Source: a virus (Duplodnaviria > Heunggongvirae > Uroviricota > Caudoviricetes). Taken from it: a stretch of DNA of 9,822 bases. This document shows, piece after piece, positions 390-8,085 of the stretch (the first letter of the stretch is position 1; every line of letters starts with the position of its first letter). The DNA lies in the IMG/VR virus record IMGVR_UViG_3300011952_000030; one strand, given 5' to 3'. The translations under genes were made by a program, and so were the position numbers. The notes beneath the pieces were generated by a model that saw only the letters and a list, made by a program, of their open reading frames with translations, was not told the DNA's origin and searched no databases.

Positions 390-1349
390 TTAATTCACCA
401 TCAGTCTTAGAGCCAGTTCTTCCGGATAGGGATCGAAGTAATTCTGTGTAAGCAAGTAATCATTAGGATACTCACCCAGATAATGCTTCAGCAGAGTCAA
501 CGGCGCAAGAAGAGGCAATGTGCCAAAGCGATAGTTAAGTATAACCTCGGTCAACTCTTTACGCTGGCGTGTACTTAAGTAATTACTAAAATACCCCTGT
601 ATATGCATCAGCACATTCGTGTGATTTTTACGTGATGCAGGTTTTCTGAGAATCGCCATCAGCTTATCACGATACACCTCAAAGTATGATTCAAGGTCCG
701 CCCACTCGTGTATTGCAGCCACAAATGGTCCCATATCTTTATAGCCTGCCTGACTATGCGCCAACAACTGAAGCTTATAACGACTATGAAAAGCTAATAA
801 CTCTCTTCTTGATAATTTCTCCTTGTAAAGGTGATTGAGCTCATGCAAAGCAAAAACTCTTTCAACAAAATTCTCACGAAGCACTGGATCATGTAATCGC
901 CCATCCTCTTCAACCGGTAGCCAGGAAAACTTTTCCATCAAAGTGCTCGTAAATAGTCCCACTCCATCTTTACGACCTCGATTACCATTTTCATCATAGA
1001 CACGCACGCGCTCCATGCCACAGCTGGGAGATTTAGCACAAACCACAAACCCCGATACATCCTTTAATTTGTGCATATAAGAACGACTAAACTCTGTCAT
1101 TCTCTCTGTCACATCCTCATTCTGGTCGTGGCTGAAACACATCCGTATATTTCCTTGCTTCGAGCGCACAAGACGTAGAGCAGGACGCGGAACTGGCAGC
1201 CCTATAGCCATTTCCGGACATACTGGTCTGAATGTTACCCATTCCACTAATTTGTCCATTAAAAAGTCAGCTCTTTTGTGACCACCATCAAAACGAACAG
1301 CAGAACCGGCCAAACAACCGCTGATTCCAATCACAGGTTTTTTTATCAT
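390..1349 (-). CDS. DUF523 (TudS-like, Cys-rich N-terminal half) fused to DUF1722 (YbgA-like C-terminal half), 319 aa
   Basis: ORF with ATG at 1349..1347 preceded by GGGGGAGGA Shine-Dalgarno. Cys motifs (GISGCLAG, VCPEMA, CAKSPSCGME) fit DUF523; the C-terminal half resembles YbgA. Family assignment is from memory, not a search. Confidence 0.75.
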   Translation of the reverse strand: MIKKPVIGISGCLAGSAVRFDGGHKRADFLMDKLVEWVTFRPVCPEMAIGLPVPRPALRLVRSKQGNIRMCFSHDQNEDVTERMTEFSRSYMHKLKDVSGFVVCAKSPSCGMERVRVYDENGNRGRKDGVGLFTSTLMEKFSWLPVEEDGRLHDPVLRENFVERVFALHELNHLYKEKLSRRELLAFHSRYKLQLLAHSQAGYKDMGPFVAAIHEWADLESYFEVYRDKLMAILRKPASRKNHTNVLMHIQGYFSNYLSTRQRKELTEVILNYRFGTLPLLAPLTLLKHYLGEYPNDYLLTQNYFDPYPEELALRLMVN

Positions 1350-1541
1350 ATCCTCCCCCTTGACTAATTCATTAACACATAAACTGTGTAGTGCACGGAA
1401 TAAATTGCCTTTCTGACGTCATCACTGACAATTTTTCTGTTATGGACTATTCCTAATATAGTATGAAAGTTCTTTAAGTGATCGGTCGTAATCATCTATC
1501 TTTCATACTTACTCTCAACTATCAAAAGTACAGGATTGATT
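1350..1541. promoter_or_regulatory. Divergent intergenic region between the YbgA-like gene and blc, with a 10-bp inverted repeat AGTATGAAAG (1461-1470) / CTTTCATACT (1500-1509) and a TGACGTCA palindrome (1426-1433)
   Basis: Repeats read directly in sequence; promoter function is inferred from position between divergent starts. Confidence 0.3.
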
Positions 1542-2066
1542 ATGAAGTTATGGCCTGTGTTGACTGGCATTGCACTCTCTTTCACTCTTATAGCATGTAA
1601 GGCCCCGACACCACCTAAAGGTGTGCAGCCGATTACAAATTTTGACGCCAACCGCTACCTCGGAAAATGGTATGAAATAGCTCGCCTCGAGAACCGGTTC
1701 GAACGTGGTCTGGAACAGGTCAGCGCTACTTATGGAAAACGGAACGACGGAGGGATTCGTGTACTTAACCGTGGATACGATCCAACGAAAAATAAATGGA
1801 GCGAGAGCGAAGGTAAAGCATACTTTACTGGAGATACTAAAACTGCAGCGTTGAAGGTTTCGTTTTTTGGCCCCTTCTATGGTGGCTATAATGTAATCAA
1901 ACTGGATGATGAGTATAAGTATGCTCTTGTTAGTGGTTCGAACAGAGAATACCTATGGATTCTGGCAAGGACCCCAACTATTCCAGATAAAGTAAAAGCA
2001 GACTATGTGCGAACCGCTCAAAAGTTGGGATTCAATGTCAATGAATTATTATGGGTTAAACAATAA
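1542..2066 (+). CDS. blc: Blc-family outer-membrane lipocalin lipoprotein (174 aa from ATG 1542; ORF track starts at TTG 1536)
   Basis: Signal peptide with lipobox L-I-A-C, then lipocalin motifs (NFDANRYLGKWYEIARL, FERGLE, KVSFFGPFYGGYNVI, YLWILARTP) closely parallel to E. coli Blc as recalled. AGGA lies 6 nt before ATG 1542. Divergent enough from chromosomal Blc to be a paralog. Confidence 0.8.
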   Translation: MKLWPVLTGIALSFTLIACKAPTPPKGVQPITNFDANRYLGKWYEIARLENRFERGLEQVSATYGKRNDGGIRVLNRGYDPTKNKWSESEGKAYFTGDTKTAALKVSFFGPFYGGYNVIKLDDEYKYALVSGSNREYLWILARTPTIPDKVKADYVRTAQKLGFNVNELLWVKQ

Positions 2067-2616: not shown

Positions 2617-3603
2617 TTAGGCCAGCACACCAATTGCCAGCGCGCGATCGATAAATCGAAAAATCAGCTCCAGTTGGGAGCCATACTTCTCTTCAAATGC
2701 CACGGTATCCGTATGCAACTCGTCGTGATGCTTTCTGCACAAAGGCAACACAAAGAGATCATGTGCTTTGGTTCCCATTCCGCCCTGCCCGTGACCAATC
2801 AGATGATGCGGATCGTCGGCTGGCATCCCGCAGCAAGCACACGGCTGTGTCTTAACCCAGCGTGTGTATTTCTCCTTAACCCAACGGTGACGTTTAGGCA
2901 GCTTCATGAAAGATTCCGGAGACTCTGGATCAACGGTGATGCTTACCACCGTCTTTTCCTGTGATGGGTTTTGTTGCTGGTGGGCGTGAGGCAACGGTGC
3001 AAGATTTTTTGTGCGCTGTTTCAATATGCTGGTGGCGGTCTGCTCTCCCGGTACGATGTCGCTTTCGCGGTACACCGAGCAGATTTTTTCCGCTGGTAAT
3101 CCCAGCGAGCGACGTAATACCGCTTCCGGTAGCGCGTCCGCCAGCTGATTGCGGACCGCCCACCAGGATAATTCAGCCAGAGATAATTCACGCTCCTTCG
3201 TACCGCTTATTGCGTGACCGATGACGTCAATCATCCATGCTGCCAGGTTTTGATGAGCAAGTTGCTCGAGTGATTCGGATGTCTGGTCACGCAGTTGGTT
3301 GTCGCAGTGCCAGCACAACACCATTGCGCCGGTACCATATCGGTGAATAACGGTTTCNNNNNNNNNNNNNNNNNNNNNNNNNNNNNNNNNNNNNNNNNNN
3401 NNNNNNNNNNNNNNNNNNNNNNNNNNNNNNNNNNNNNNNNNNNNNNNNNNNNNNNNNNNNNNNNNNNGCAGATTACGCATGCTTTTCGGTTCCGGCTCCA
3501 CCAGTACCCGGGTATTGTGGAATACCGGCATGGATTCACGGCCCGGCTTAACGACCACCAGCCCGAGTTCCGGTACCAGAACAGGTCGAAGTAATACCCG
3601 CAC
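2617..3603 (-). CDS. Nin-region protein with C-terminal HNH-like zinc-finger motif (DUF968 / YdfU-like); reading frame passes through a 110-nt N-run so the product is incomplete
   Basis: C-terminus [18 protein letters not shown]...[10 protein letters not shown] has the CxxC...HH...CxxHH spacing typical of HNH/DUF968 proteins found just upstream of Q in Qin-type prophages. ATG 3603 sits 1 nt after the upstream gene stop. Residues within 3358-3467 are unknown. Confidence 0.55.
3358..3467. other. Run of 110 N (masked or unresolved sequence) inside the DUF968-like gene
   Basis: Directly visible. The flanking reading frame is conserved across it. Confidence 0.95.
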
Positions 3604-4417: not shown

Positions 4418-4573
4418 TTACTCCTCAGGTTCGTAAGCTGTGAAGACAGCGACCTCCGTCTGGCCGGTTCGGATTCGTACCTCGCAGAGGTCTTTCCTCG
4501 TTACCAGTGCCGTCACTATGACGGTTAAACAGATGACGATCAGGGCGATTAACATCGCCTTTTGCTGCTTCAT
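4418..4573 (-). CDS. hokD: Hok/Gef-family type I toxin (HokD/RelF-like), 51 aa from ATG 4573; the ORF track's longer 70-aa form is an in-frame upstream extension
   Basis: MKQQKAMLIALIVICLTVIVTALVTRKDLCEVRIRTGQTEVAVFTAYEPEE matches E. coli K-12 HokD as I recall it: single TM helix plus conserved Cys and C-terminal periplasmic tail. A perfect 9-bp stem-loop (4389-4410) lies just 3' of the stop. Confidence 0.85.
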   Translation of the reverse strand: MKQQKAMLIALIVICLTVIVTALVTRKDLCEVRIRTGQTEVAVFTAYEPEE

Positions 4574-4951
4574 AGCCTGCTTCTCCTTGCCTTTCGGCAC
4601 GTAAGAGGCTAACCTACATGTGTCTAGCATGAAATTGGCCTCAGATTAATGTTAAGCGTCTTGCAGGACGCGTAATGTTAACTGGGGCTTTTCTCTATCT
4701 GCCGTTGGTGTTCATGCCCGAGGCAGATAGCCTCAAGCACCCGCAGGCATTCTACTTAACTCCCGTTATCTCGCCAATATGAAATCAGTCAGAAAGGCGA
4801 TCCATAAGAATAACAGAACAATAAATTACCCGCACCACCGCAATAGTCAGCGAACATTTAAGAACCAACATGACAGCCTCCCACATTTAAAGTACGTATG
4901 TTCTAATAAATATAAATGGCATGATTCTGCGAAATACTTACATAAGCAATT

Positions 4952-4980
4952 CGCTCAAATCTGACTGTCAGTTTTGAGCG
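4952..4980 (-). terminator. Near-perfect 29-nt palindrome (CGCTCAAA t CTGAC t GTCAG t TTTGAGCG) about 40 nt downstream of the ATPase gene stop; candidate operon terminator or protein-binding site
   Basis: Read directly in sequence. Flanked by an A-rich tract on the plus side and a moderately U-rich tract on the minus side. Sits at the left edge of the AT-rich island. Confidence 0.4.
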
Positions 4981-5018
4981 AGAAAAATGATATCTACATA
5001 TCTATCAAATTACAAATC

Positions 5019-6743
5019 TTAAAGCCTAAAAAACTTATCGTCCTCCCCAAGCTCAAGCACAACACTATTATTGATGAAGTCTTGATCAATATTCTCCAAC
5101 TTGTCTTTAAGAATAGCCAATATATATTGACCATTAATCCCCGAAGCTATCTCGAATAACTTATTTATTTGATTTACATGAATTGCCTCAATTCCATCAT
5201 GAGCTATAAAACGTGGTGTTCTGGCTTCTAAAGACTCCTGGACAGATAAATAGGCAAAATCTAAAGAGGCAACCTGGGCTTTCTTTTTTCCTTCTCCCTG
5301 ATTACCTGATGTGAGCAAAGTTCCTAAAGGTTCAATGGTAAAAACGAAAGAACCGGAGGAATCTTTATAGGAAAGAATATATTCATCCTGATATAATTTT
5401 TTAGTATATAAAGAAAAATAGGAATTGAATAGCGCAAGACGTTTGTTAAAATCGTCAAGTTTAGATTTTAATCTATCTGACACATCATTAAACTTTGCTT
5501 TCAGTATATTAAAGTTGTTCTCCATCTCTTGGATTTGAAGTAGTCCAGCTTCAAGCCCACCTTTTTCTTCAAATAATGAATTTAATTTTTTTTGCATTAT
5601 TTGCAGGTCTGCCAATGTCCCATGCGAAGACAAACTCTTTAAAAGCTCTGATTCTTGAGTCAATAAGTTATTTAGTTCATCTTTATATTTGGAAATTTCT
5701 TGCAGCACTGGCTGCATTTGTTTTCTAATAAACTCAGCTTTTTTTACAAGCATTTTATTATGAAACGAAAGTAGCTCAGTAAACTCTTTGTTTAAGTTAC
5801 CTAACCGATCAGTTGCTTCTAAGTACAACTTCTGTAGATCTAGTGTATTTATATTTTCATGACTTTTTTCCAGATCTAGTATAGCCTTATCGTTTAATTT
5901 TTGCTTAAACTCCAAAGATGATAGTGTGATAGAAACTTCACTAATTTTAATTTTTAACTCATTTAACTCAGCAAGCATATCATTATAAGAGTCTGCCACT
6001 TGAAAATTAGAAATTAACTCTTCTTGTGCTATAATATCTCTATTTATAATTGCAATAGCTTGTTCCAAAGCATTCTTTGAGCGATGGCGAGTAATTACTT
6101 CATAATCGGATTTCGCCAGTTTATAGGCTTTAGTCACTGACTGTTTTTCATCCAGAATCTGTGAGTTACCGAACCCAAACATAAACAGATTTAACGTTTC
6201 ATATTGTGTATTAGAACCCATTTTTATCGTTTTTAATGCGTTCGACATCTTGTCATGCGTATTTCGAATAACACGTCCCATAATCTCTCGTATGGTCGGT
6301 TTTATCGCGGAATCAAGATATAATGTTCTTTTTAAAGCCTCGTTGAAATCTTTAGCCTTCGTATAGGACTCTTCATTTATTGAGGCTATAACCTTCGTTT
6401 TATTAGTCTCAGATGTAATTTTACGCTTAATTTTTATTACTGGTGCAGTTTTATTATTCAAATCTTTTGTGAGAATTAAACAAAACTCAATCTCGTTCTC
6501 TATCAAATAATTTTTTATAACCGAATTTTCTTTCTTGAATTCAGGATCGGTATAAAAATTCAGTTGTTCTGCTCCAAAACAAAAATCTAAAGCTCTTAAT
6601 ACAGTAGTTTTTCCCACACCATTTCCAGTTTGCTCTTTGCTGGAGGTGTTTCGGTCAATAATCAAATTAACGCCAATGTGAAATTCGATATCACGAATCA
6701 CTCCAAGCCTGAAAGAACTGACTATTAGCCGTTTCAAAAACAT
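5019..6743 (-). CDS. P-loop ABC/SMC-like ATPase with long central coiled coil, 574 aa; last gene of the AT-rich operon
   Basis: N-terminal head typical of SMC/RecF/OLD-type ABC ATPases, with Walker A GNGVGKTT (aa 40-47, nt 6603-6626). Lys/Glu/Leu-rich heptad region at about aa 230-470. Degenerate signature-like TSGNQGEG (aa 479-485) and Walker-B-like FIAHD (aa 512-516, nt 5196-5210). ATG 6743 overlaps the upstream gene by 10 nt. Confidence 0.8.
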   Translation of the reverse strand: MFLKRLIVSSFRLGVIRDIEFHIGVNLIIDRNTSSKEQTGNGVGKTTVLRALDFCFGAEQLNFYTDPEFKKENSVIKNYLIENEIEFCLILTKDLNNKTAPVIKIKRKITSETNKTKVIASINEESYTKAKDFNEALKRTLYLDSAIKPTIREIMGRVIRNTHDKMSNALKTIKMGSNTQYETLNLFMFGFGNSQILDEKQSVTKAYKLAKSDYEVITRHRSKNALEQAIAIINRDIIAQEELISNFQVADSYNDMLAELNELKIKISEVSITLSSLEFKQKLNDKAILDLEKSHENINTLDLQKLYLEATDRLGNLNKEFTELLSFHNKMLVKKAEFIRKQMQPVLQEISKYKDELNNLLTQESELLKSLSSHGTLADLQIMQKKLNSLFEEKGGLEAGLLQIQEMENNFNILKAKFNDVSDRLKSKLDDFNKRLALFNSYFSLYTKKLYQDEYILSYKDSSGSFVFTIEPLGTLLTSGNQGEGKKKAQVASLDFAYLSVQESLEARTPRFIAHDGIEAIHVNQINKLFEIASGINGQYILAILKDKLENIDQDFINNSVVLELGEDDKFFRL

Positions 6744-6970
6744 AATATCAAATCTCCATTTTCGTTAGCATCAACCAGGCCTAATAAATATAGCCAATTT
6801 AAAGTGTAAATATATTGCGTGAATGAAGAGTTGTTATTTTTAGATTTGAATTCATTATACAAGTCTATAATATCAACATACGAATAAGCATTTGAACTCA
6901 TGCATTCTAATAACCGAGCTCCCAGGTAATACAAGGTTTGGCTTGGTTTTGTTACATCAGAGATAATCAT
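6734..6970 (-). CDS. Small 78-aa protein, third gene of the AT-rich operon; possible adaptor or winged-helix-like component
   Basis: ATG 6970 overlaps the upstream stop in an ATGA arrangement; its own stop overlaps the ATPase start. Codon usage matches the neighbours. No motif recognised. Confidence 0.6.
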   Translation of the reverse strand: MIISDVTKPSQTLYYLGARLLECMSSNAYSYVDIIDLYNEFKSKNNNSSFTQYIYTLNWLYLLGLVDANENGDLILCF

Positions 6971-7563
6971 ATTGGTTTTTCCAGAATCTTACACTCTACG
7001 AATGCATGATAAACGATAAAAGAAGCATGGCATTCGATTTCTTCGCTTGTGTAATTCATTGCCATAAGAGAATTTAAGCATTTCTTAATGATGTGCTCTA
7101 TTACACTGTCTATTATCCAATCTGCAAACTCTCTTACCAATTGAATCTTTAAATTATTCCGTTCCTGAGCATCCTTGCAGCTCTTATACGCTTCTCTATG
7201 TTTAAGCAATAAATCTCCTTGACAATCAAGATATCGTGAATTGATGCTTTTCAGTGCCGTTTCCTTAGCAGTAGGCATACTTTCATTTAATGTTTCATAC
7301 GCTTTATCTATCATCGAAGAATATAGATAGAACCCTTCAATACGTTCTCTATGTTTTATAACATCATTGAAGTCTATTTTATTCTCAATATCATATGGCT
7401 CGTAGTCATTGTTTGTACGAGGATCAATAACATTCGAATCAACTAAAATACCAACAAGATCCATAAAAATCGATGGAGACTTTATAATATCAACAGAGTT
7501 AGAATCGACAACCACCTGCACATTACGTGAGTAATTCCCTGACCTTTGAGTAACACCAACCAT
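6967..7563 (-). CDS. 198-aa soluble protein of unknown function, second gene of the AT-rich operon
   Basis: ATG 7563 lies 2 nt after the upstream TGA; its stop overlaps the next ATG. Acidic, with five Cys but no recognisable nuclease or protease motif. Confidence 0.65.
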   Translation of the reverse strand: MVGVTQRSGNYSRNVQVVVDSNSVDIIKSPSIFMDLVGILVDSNVIDPRTNNDYEPYDIENKIDFNDVIKHRERIEGFYLYSSMIDKAYETLNESMPTAKETALKSINSRYLDCQGDLLLKHREAYKSCKDAQERNNLKIQLVREFADWIIDSVIEHIIKKCLNSLMAMNYTSEEIECHASFIVYHAFVECKILEKPI

Positions 7564-7565
7564 GA

Positions 7566-7811
7566 TCAGCCTCGCTTGTTTTCATTATTTCCAAAAACGA
7601 CCGTCTGATTATTTTTTGAATGGCTACCGCTTTTTTGAATTATTGTATGCCCTGAACTTTTTTTATTAACAATAAATGTACCTAAAAATGTTACAAGAAA
7701 GCTACCAGAAGTGAACATCAATGGCACACTATTGAAGTGATATGCAGCAAAGCCAGCGCAAGCAACGAATGTCAAAGAAAATATTCTAATCATAATTCGG
7801 ATCATAGCCAC
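7566..7811 (-). CDS. Small two-TM membrane protein (81 aa from GTG 7811, or 79 aa from ATG 7805), first gene of the AT-rich operon
   Basis: Two hydrophobic helices (about aa 8-27 and 30-48) followed by a polar Lys/Ser/Asn-rich tail. AGGA lies 8 nt upstream of ATG 7805. Confidence 0.55.
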   Translation of the reverse strand: MAMIRIMIRIFSLTFVACAGFAAYHFNSVPLMFTSGSFLVTFLGTFIVNKKSSGHTIIQKSGSHSKNNQTVVFGNNENKRG

Positions 7812-7899
7812 ATCCTGTAAGTACTGTTGTCATCTTTTAGTGATTCTTGAATCCCATACTATACAAAAGCTTATCCATCTTTTGTACAAGCTTCCGCTT

Positions 7900-7990
7900 T
7901 GAAAGTGACATTATAAAGTAACTACAACTTAGAGTGCATCCCCCTAAATATCTCCGATGGTGATAGTTGCTGGCTACAACTTACTTCCAT
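7900..7990 (-). promoter_or_regulatory. Putative promoter/operator of the AT-rich operon: consensus -10 TATAAT (minus strand, plus coordinates 7915..7910) and a perfect 10-bp direct repeat CTACAACTTA at 7922-7931 and 7974-7983
   Basis: Hexamer and repeats read directly. The -35 is weak (TGCACT), so activity is uncertain. The repeats are spaced 52 bp apart, about five helical turns. Confidence 0.3.
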
Positions 7991-8028
7991 AACCAACTAA
8001 CTGGCTTGCTCTGCGTTAATTAGTGCAT

Positions 8029-8085
8029 NNNNNNNNNNNNNNNNNNNNNNNNNNNNNNNNNNNNNNNNNNNNNNNNNNNNNNNNN
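8029..8085. other. Run of 57 N (masked or unresolved sequence) upstream of the AT-rich operon
   Basis: Directly visible. Flanked by ...TAGTGCAT and TGCATAGG... Confidence 0.95.

Follow-up and report, generated by a model that had tools for sequence, protein, structure and literature searches.

Few bacterial defence families are as widespread as Lamassu. The activation of its fused nucleases is explained by recent structures, but one clade has seemed to be without an effector. [quoted passage not shown] Canonical LmuA proteins begin with a nuclease, protease, SIR2 or lipase domain. [quoted passage not shown] LmuA is sequestered there as a monomer until DNA ends are sensed; once released it tetramerises through its C-terminal domains, and proximity activates the N-terminal domain. 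This work concerns a four-gene operon on the minus strand of a 9,822-nucleotide stretch of viral DNA, IMG/VR record IMGVR_UViG_3300011952_000030, which we call the window. We believe the operon is probably a prophage-borne short Lamassu (ABC-3C) anti-phage system that works through an amyloid-like relay.

The other described systems that matter here are amyloid-signalling pairs. Bab/Agp (BASS11, one of the bacterial amyloid signalling sequences, BASS; bioRxiv 10.1101/2024.11.07.622273) is a pair of proteins from an E. coli prophage in which a shared motif of about 20 residues transmits an amyloid fold, with membrane damage as the result. The Bell/NLR BASS pairs and the fungal HET-S/NWD2 pair have the same layout: the motif lies at the C-terminus of the effector and at the N-terminus of the receptor, and the two genes are neighbours.

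The operon of the window lies in an accessory island, and its four open reading frames (ORFs), of 81, 198, 78 and 574 residues, are tightly packed.

About 4750-8000, no strand: low-GC accessory island with the four-gene operon, about 31-37% GC against 43-54% in the flanks (composition profile)
7566-7811, minus strand: gene 1, small membrane protein of 81 residues (ORF; RefSeq coding sequence 'hypothetical protein')
6967-7563, minus strand: gene 2, LmuA-like adaptor of 198 residues, a short head plus CTD10, with no enzymatic effector domain
6734-6970, minus strand: gene 3, LmuC-like middle component (MC6) of 78 residues, a predicted winged helix
5019-6743, minus strand: gene 4, LmuB-like SMC/Rad50-type ABC ATPase of 574 residues, its head divided by a long helical insert

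Only 2 nt lie between the stop of gene 1 and the start of the 198-residue ORF. The stop of that ORF and the start of the 78-residue ORF share an ATGA (6967-6970), and the 78-residue ORF overlaps the ATPase ORF by the 10 nt ATGTTTTTGA (6734-6743). A preliminary description of the window had singled out genes 2 and 3 as two proteins coupled to the ATPase by these overlaps. Both overlaps are present as claimed, and the two ORFs are real: all four are annotated coding sequences in RefSeq E. coli genomes, and the 198-residue gene is under purifying selection (ratio of non-synonymous to synonymous polymorphism, pN/pS, 0.14-0.22). What the description missed is the fourth coupled gene of the same operon, gene 1.

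The same description found no motif it could name in either protein and considered them the likeliest place for genuinely new domains. We disagree on both points, since each belongs to a described Pfam family above its gathering score. The 198-residue protein is a member of CTD10 (PF20275; E 1.6e-10, 42.1 bits against a cut-off of 28.1) and the 78-residue protein a member of MC6 (PF20293; E 1.6e-13, 50.8 bits against a cut-off of 27.2). RefSeq concurs, naming the first 'ABC-three component system protein' and the second 'ABC-three component system middle component 6'. Neither has a PADLOC, NCBIfam or PHROG match. The domain can be placed as follows.

6979-7458, minus strand: CTD10 domain, residues 36-195 of gene 2, all-helical (Pfam coordinates; AlphaFold2 model)

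The AlphaFold2 model of the 198-residue protein has a mean predicted local distance difference test score (pLDDT) of 78 and is helical from residue 29 on (helices at 29-41 and 69-190). The 78-residue protein is modelled as a winged helix with moderate confidence, in a model built from five near-identical sequences. Remote homology had been suggested as a check, and the Pfam profiles do match both proteins, but Foldseek with the 198-residue model returned no match in the PDB. The description had also allowed for clear homology to a housekeeping family; both proteins are indeed clearly homologous to a known family, which however serves in defence. Its idea of stoichiometric partners or an adaptor was essentially right, as these are the families of the LmuA C-terminal domain and of LmuC, which sit on the LmuB dimer. 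The 198-residue protein is the counterpart of LmuA and the 78-residue protein that of LmuC, beside an LmuB-like ATPase, and the locus is almost certainly a member of ABC-3C/Lamassu. By analogy with the solved LmuA C-terminal domains, CTD10 is predicted to be a docking and oligomerisation module. As such the two proteins are ordinary, known Lamassu components.

What is new is the N-terminal head of the 198-residue protein, a stretch not covered by the Pfam domain, together with the way it matches the tail of the upstream membrane protein. The 35 residues ahead of CTD10 have no Pfam, PADLOC or NCBIfam match, and no Cap4, Mrr, HNH, SIR2, protease or lipase domain is fused to the C-terminal domain. 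Because there is no fused effector domain, we rank the protein as a variant and not as a typical Lamassu member. In place of such a domain there is a head of about 25 residues rich in N, Q, G and S, which in the AlphaFold2 model has a pLDDT below 50 and a weak tendency to beta-strand.

Gene 1 reads as 81 residues from a GTG at 7811; RefSeq starts it at the ATG at 7805, for 79 residues. Its protein has two hydrophobic helices (about residues 4-23 and 29-48) followed by an N/Q/G/S-rich tail that is predicted to be cytoplasmic. It belongs to no Pfam, PADLOC, NCBIfam or PHROG family, and a comparison with holins and small toxins gave Pfam Hol_Tox at E 0.014 and 15.7 bits, under the cut-off of 23.3. 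The gene is kept directly upstream of the CTD10 gene in Pectobacterium, 'Pseudomonas' flectens, Chimaeribacter and Enterobacter at 38-41% identity. It is present and translationally coupled in 7/7 genome loci of 48-100% identity, and it is under purifying selection similar to that on the CTD10 gene (pN/pS 0.11-0.26). That the four genes form a conserved unit is well supported. The membrane protein is very probably a functional, motif-matched fourth component, and we propose that it is the effector missing from the adaptor itself. The motif pair lies at these positions.

7590-7643, minus strand: tail motif of gene 1, residues 57-74, IIQKSGSHSKNNQTVVFG, conserved in orthologues
7501-7554, minus strand: head motif of gene 2, residues 4-21, VTQRSGNYSRNVQVVVDS, outside the CTD10 match

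Tail and head are identical at 8 of 18 residues, and the N/Q/G/S content of the motif is 50-59%. Among the gene 1 orthologues of 38-41% identity, Q59, G62, S65, N67, Q69 and F73 of the tail are invariant; among the homologues of gene 2, head residues Q6, G9, S12, N14 and Q16 are invariant or nearly so. The positions that tail and head have in common (Q, G, S, N, Q) are therefore those conserved in orthologues of both.

The relationship extends well past the window. When 1.84 billion cluster representatives were searched with a profile, 501 CTD10 proteins reached E<=0.001 (clusters at 50% identity). The 149 best of these are mostly short, 141 of them having 170-235 residues, and in this set N, Q and G make up 32% of the short-form heads against 13% of the body. 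Fused domains occur in 5 of the 149: three HNH-like (one checked with Pfam), one SMEK_N and one Mrr-like. The fused proteins are about 275 residues long for HNH, about 316 for SMEK_N and 348 for the Mrr-like form, and the cases seen are the loci L059, L040, L022 and about 25 others, along with the representatives P0140, P0141, P0167, P0112 and P0151. A genome scan with a narrow alignment gave four loci only. A degenerate DNA pattern for the conserved CTD10 C-terminal peptide, F[IVM][EDN]CKILE.P, gave 133 further loci in viral and metagenome collections, for 116 CTD10 ORFs in all.

A partner was defined as a small ORF ending between -30 and +15 nt of the CTD10 start, and the rule was applied to those short-form loci that have 350 nt or more of DNA upstream. 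By this automatic rule 57 of 59 loci have an upstream partner, and the number becomes 58 of 59 once L012 is inspected. The sole exception is L097, which has a split SMEK-CTD10 gene. One or two transmembrane (TM) helices are predicted in 55 of the 57 partners; the other two, from metagenome loci L057 (4390-4725) and L094 (3732-4067), are 111-residue proteins of the Pfam HetE-N family (E 1.8e-12) that start MDIITSAVLGG. Their tail, DNYGAIVGNNSGEIKIDIKK, matches the cognate head, and in kind it is like the tails of the 1-TM partners. The fused-effector CTD10 loci (HNH-, SMEK_N- and Mrr-type) serve as the negative control. No adjacent upstream ORF is found in 28 of 32 of them, the remaining four have unrelated upstream ORFs with scores of 18-26, and a motif-matched partner is present in 0/32.

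The motif types are far apart between lineages and alike within each tail/head pair. Examples are NNHGNNSGIQIGNNNGDIN / NNHGNNDGLQIGVNKGPIN and VNSGSGDNYMADRDLNV / NNSGSGINYAALRDINV; further pairs are VEVTNNGNNSGVISGINSGEI / RVENCGDNSGVMVANNNGSI, TSDNGGISVDNSGFLNKFNI / KADRGGLAYDGSGVGNKPTFNI and KGDNSQQAVGSITNN / TGQGSQQAFNDIVNN. Co-variation was measured by Smith-Waterman local-alignment scores and a permutation test on 26 lineages of less than 60% identity. The mean score is 54.3 for cognate pairs against 28.9 for non-cognate pairs. The cognate partner ranks first of 26 for 15 tails and 19 heads, and the window tail is the best match to its own head. Not one of 100,000 permutations reached the observed sum of scores. 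Identical tail and head residues use the same codon in 130 of 275 cases, where 131.7 are expected. Codon sharing is not above expectation, and therefore it is at the protein level, not through gene conversion, that the likeness of head and tail is kept; on the same numbers we reject recent duplication or gene conversion as its source.

Several apparent oddities in this material deserve a word. What looked like a natural TM-head-CTD10 fusion (P0128/L012) is an artefact of ORF calling, with the separate partner ORF in another frame. A read-through or frameshift fusion of the 2-TM and 198-residue ORFs of the window was also considered and set aside: they are in different frames, a TGA and 2 nt lie between them, no slippery site is evident, and the pair is separate in every lineage. 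At L097 (3859-4802), and also at L070, L096, L028 and L109, the SMEK_N and CTD10 halves are on two overlapping ORFs. These are either frameshifted pseudogenes or truly split SMEK-CTD10 proteins. In L016 (5814-6065) and L053 (5848-6066) up to about 20 consecutive Asn residues lie between the TM helix and the tail motif of the partner, and the length of the run differs between the two loci.

Here is the mechanism that we believe would account for these data. In the resting state the adaptor would be held as a monomer on the LmuB dimer together with LmuC. LmuB would sense phage DNA ends or replication structures, and the adaptor would be released. The freed adaptor would oligomerise through CTD10 as other LmuA proteins do, a step modelled only on the C-terminal domains of those proteins, and this would bring several N/Q/G-rich heads together. 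The clustered heads would nucleate an in-register cross-beta, amyloid-like fold and template it onto the matching tails of the 2-TM membrane protein. The membrane protein would then assemble into a membrane-damaging oligomer, and the infection would be aborted. A homotypic, amyloid-like contact is favoured because the partners are alike, although a heterotypic interface would not call for likeness, because the motifs are rich in N, Q, G and S, and because the same kind of tail is found on different membrane-targeting modules (1-TM, 2-TM and HetE-N). One point weighs against it, namely that the motif of the window itself is among the less arc-like types. On balance we lean towards amyloid-like templating as the coupling mechanism. 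The broader claim is that in a widespread Lamassu clade (at least 501 clusters at 50% identity, mostly of the short form) a prion-like relay replaces the fused enzymatic effector; we see the chances of this as about even.

The comparison with known amyloid-signalling pairs shows both how far the likeness goes and where it stops. As in Bab/Agp, the genes are adjacent, they lie in an E. coli prophage defence hotspot, the putative effector is small and membrane-targeting, and an N/Q/G-rich motif is found at the C-terminus on the effector side and at the N-terminus on the sensor side. Unlike in Bab/Agp, the motif here is on a Lamassu adaptor predicted to dock on an SMC-like ATPase, and the proposed effector is a 2-TM hairpin. 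The locus has in common with the Bell/NLR BASS and HET-S/NWD2 pairs that there are several motif families and that these co-vary within pairs, and some of its relatives (L057 and L094) have a Pfam HetE-N domain effector. The window effector, however, is a 2-TM hairpin of no Pfam family and is not of the HeLo, Hell or Bell type. The sensors also differ. The receptors of Bell/NLR and HET-S/NWD2 are STAND/NLR nucleoside triphosphatases (NTPases) that carry the motif themselves and oligomerise on their ligand; here a Lamassu CTD10 adaptor carries it, to be released from a complex in which an SMC-like ATPase would do the sensing. Because the sensor and, in the window, the effector both differ, we do not place the system in the Bell/NLR or Bab/Agp families, even though it would work like an amyloid-signalling pair. 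The hosts are different as well: unicellular Enterobacterales and gut bacteria here, as against the multicellular Actinobacteria and Cyanobacteria in which the original BASS survey found its motifs.

The rival that survives best is a constitutive tether: a stable beta-sheet that does not propagate would form between head and tail and bind adaptor and membrane protein together permanently. The two would then make up a split 'TM-CTD10' LmuA whose task is either to anchor the Lamassu complex at the membrane or to hold the membrane protein in an inactive state, and activation would come by release or conformational change and not by templated polymerisation. The pairing and co-variation fit this arrangement equally, tight translational coupling suggests a fixed stoichiometry, and the head does occupy the exact position of the fused effectors in the HNH-, SMEK- and Mrr-CTD10 proteins. 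However, partners that dock heterotypically have no need to look alike, and likeness is what homotypic stacking in register leads one to expect. Two further features fit known amyloid-signalling pairs, namely a composition rich in N, Q and G and HetE-N partners that carry the same tails, and among the best 149 of the 501 representatives there is no natural TM-head-CTD10 fusion. We therefore think the tether unlikely.

We consider it improbable that head and tail are competing mimics that bind the same pocket on a third partner, be it LmuB, MC6 or the CTD10 body. The head might for example serve as an auto-inhibitory pseudo-ligand until activation displaces it, with the membrane protein tail captured or released as a result. 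As this idea expects, two members of the same complex carry short linear motifs that are alike, and the interfaces among LmuA, LmuB and LmuC are extensive in the published complexes. The difficulty is that the motif types differ radically by lineage while CTD10, MC and ATPase stay alignable, and therefore the third binding site would have to co-vary equally fast. The low-complexity N/Q/G composition is also atypical of pocket-binding peptides.

The view of the preliminary description, that genes 2 and 3 encode two unclassifiable new domains which serve an uncharacterised ATPase as a specificity or adaptor module, seems to us very improbable. An adaptor role is compatible with Lamassu architecture, and neither protein has a PADLOC, NCBIfam or PHROG match or a sequence relative in the PDB, but the curated Pfam families and the RefSeq names given above agree with each other and identify both. 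We give next to no credence to the proposal that the upstream ORF is an unrelated moron gene (holin- or Hok-like) or non-coding, its likeness to the head being chance low complexity or the leftover of a local duplication: a Hol_Tox match below its cut-off and the inflation of alignment scores by N/Q/G-rich peptides, seen in the non-cognate mean, are set against the purifying selection on gene 1, its strict co-occurrence with short-form CTD10 and want of a matched counterpart in the fused-effector loci, the excess of cognate over non-cognate scores that no permutation reached, and a codon identity that argues against recent duplication or gene conversion.

The likeness to Lamassu rests on layout as well as on domains. 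As in the type II short Lamassu systems (DdmABC of V. cholerae, LmuACB of Salmonella), the effector-side gene, the middle component and the ATPase come in this order with overlapping frames, the C-terminal and MC domains belong to Pfam families, and the location is a mobile element. The logic is expected to be the same, with an LmuB dimer that would hold LmuA and LmuC, release, and oligomerisation of LmuA driven by the C-terminal domain. There are two differences. The LmuA-like protein has its N/Q/G/S-rich head where a Cap4, Mrr, HNH, SIR2, protease or lipase domain would be, and an extra membrane-protein gene with a matching tail lies upstream, making four genes. The fused-effector CTD10 proteins (HNH-, SMEK_N- and Mrr-like) have the same CTD10 and the same downstream MC and ATPase genes, but their effector is covalently fused and none of their 32 loci has a motif-matched upstream gene.

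The ATPase contributes the following.

6603-6626, minus strand: P-loop (Walker A) GNGVGKTT, ATPase residues 40-47, kept in relatives
5196-5210, minus strand: deviant Walker B FIAHD, ATPase residues 512-516, followed by GIE (to 519) (motif scan)

Across nine ATPases of 25-50% identity, G40, N41, G44, K45 and T47 of the P-loop are invariant, as are F512, D516 and E519 at the Walker B. Matches of the coiled-coil type cover residues 190-430, between the two motifs, and the C-terminal half of the head is Pfam DUF2326 (residues 447-573). At 574 residues, and with a long helical insert between P-loop and Walker B, the protein has the form of the short-form ATPases of about 600 residues. Deviant Walker B motifs have been reported for LmuB, and the motif scan found no CxxC zinc hook; in both respects the ATPase resembles the Vc-Cap4 clade. 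The protein matches phrog_5467 (E 2e-29). Its best PADLOC match is the candidate system PDC-M68B (E 1.3e-41), and the LmuB models match weakly (E 6e-4 and 0.03). PDB sequences searched with the three proteins and the family profiles gave no LmuA, LmuB or LmuC, only coiled-coil noise and weak matches to the Rad50 N-terminus, these being all that the ATPase profile found (E 0.1-0.3). Profile scores of this kind point weakly to homology with LmuB.

The closest description in the literature is that of the 'Clade O' short Lamassu systems (Haudiquet et al. 2025, bioRxiv 10.1101/2025.04.02.646746), whose architecture is as here and which may be the same set as the CTD10 short forms. The text of that preprint has no membrane partner and no shared motif; the words 'membrane' and 'transmembrane' do not occur in it. 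Among the papers searched we found none that links Lamassu or CTD10 with amyloid signalling, a review of August 2026 included, and no experimental report of phage or plasmid protection by the CTD10 subfamily; the founding ABC-3C paper (Krishnan et al. 2020) may mention a membrane partner. The variant of Lamassu described here is apparently both undescribed and widespread.

Our analysis points to a separate small membrane protein as the missing effector, and to a co-varying pair of short peptides as the device that couples it. If the coupling is indeed amyloid templating, it would explain the 'effector-less' Lamassu clade and join SMC-like DNA sensing with prion-like immune signalling, as the first amyloid-signalling pathway driven by an SMC-family sensor. 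The final lethal assembly of the relay would be a small membrane protein or a HetE-N/Bell-like pore former. It would follow that amyloid signalling reaches well beyond NLR-type receptors and multicellular microbes, and is common in unicellular gut and enteric bacteria, their prophages and their satellites. There would also be dozens of naturally orthogonal motif pairs to swap in finding out what rules govern the specificity of functional amyloids. E. coli carrying the 3-kb operon would allow a direct test of the hypothesis.

The segment is 100% identical to chromosomal E. coli loci such as NZ_AP021933.1, and the prophage is a lambdoid one of the Qin/DicB type. Of 5426 complete E. coli genomes, only 17 have the whole island. 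In the RefSeq annotation of the identical locus the island lies between replication/DUF977 genes on one side and hokD, rem, ydfU and the Q antiterminator on the other. A scan for promoters and terminators gave 18 sites against 13.8 expected and found no terminator for the operon. In E. coli NZ_CM144239.1 and NZ_OZ392455.1 the operon is broken by an IS3-family element, which suggests that the system is inactivated in some strains; the two records, each of 4,879,178 bases, share match coordinates and are probably one genome deposited twice. The same four-gene system is found at 48% identity in a P4-like satellite of 'Pseudomonas' flectens (L003; L005 in Logan SRR1587384), between an integrase adjoining smpB and the genes psu, ogr/delta and alpA, a known P4-like defence hotspot.

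Runs of N occur in the window at about 3297-3480 and 8023-8085. The first breaks a ydfU/DUF968-like ORF (2617-3603), and the second is intergenic and upstream of the operon, so part of the promoter region cannot be read. Directly downstream of the operon is a hokD-type type I toxin gene (4418-4630, minus strand), followed in the RefSeq annotation of the identical locus by rem, the DUF968/ydfU gene and the Q antiterminator. Between the Q antiterminator and the prophage lysis genes are a YbgA-family protein (390-1349, minus strand) and a lipocalin-family lipoprotein (1536-2066, plus strand), whose genes are probably further cargo (moron) genes.

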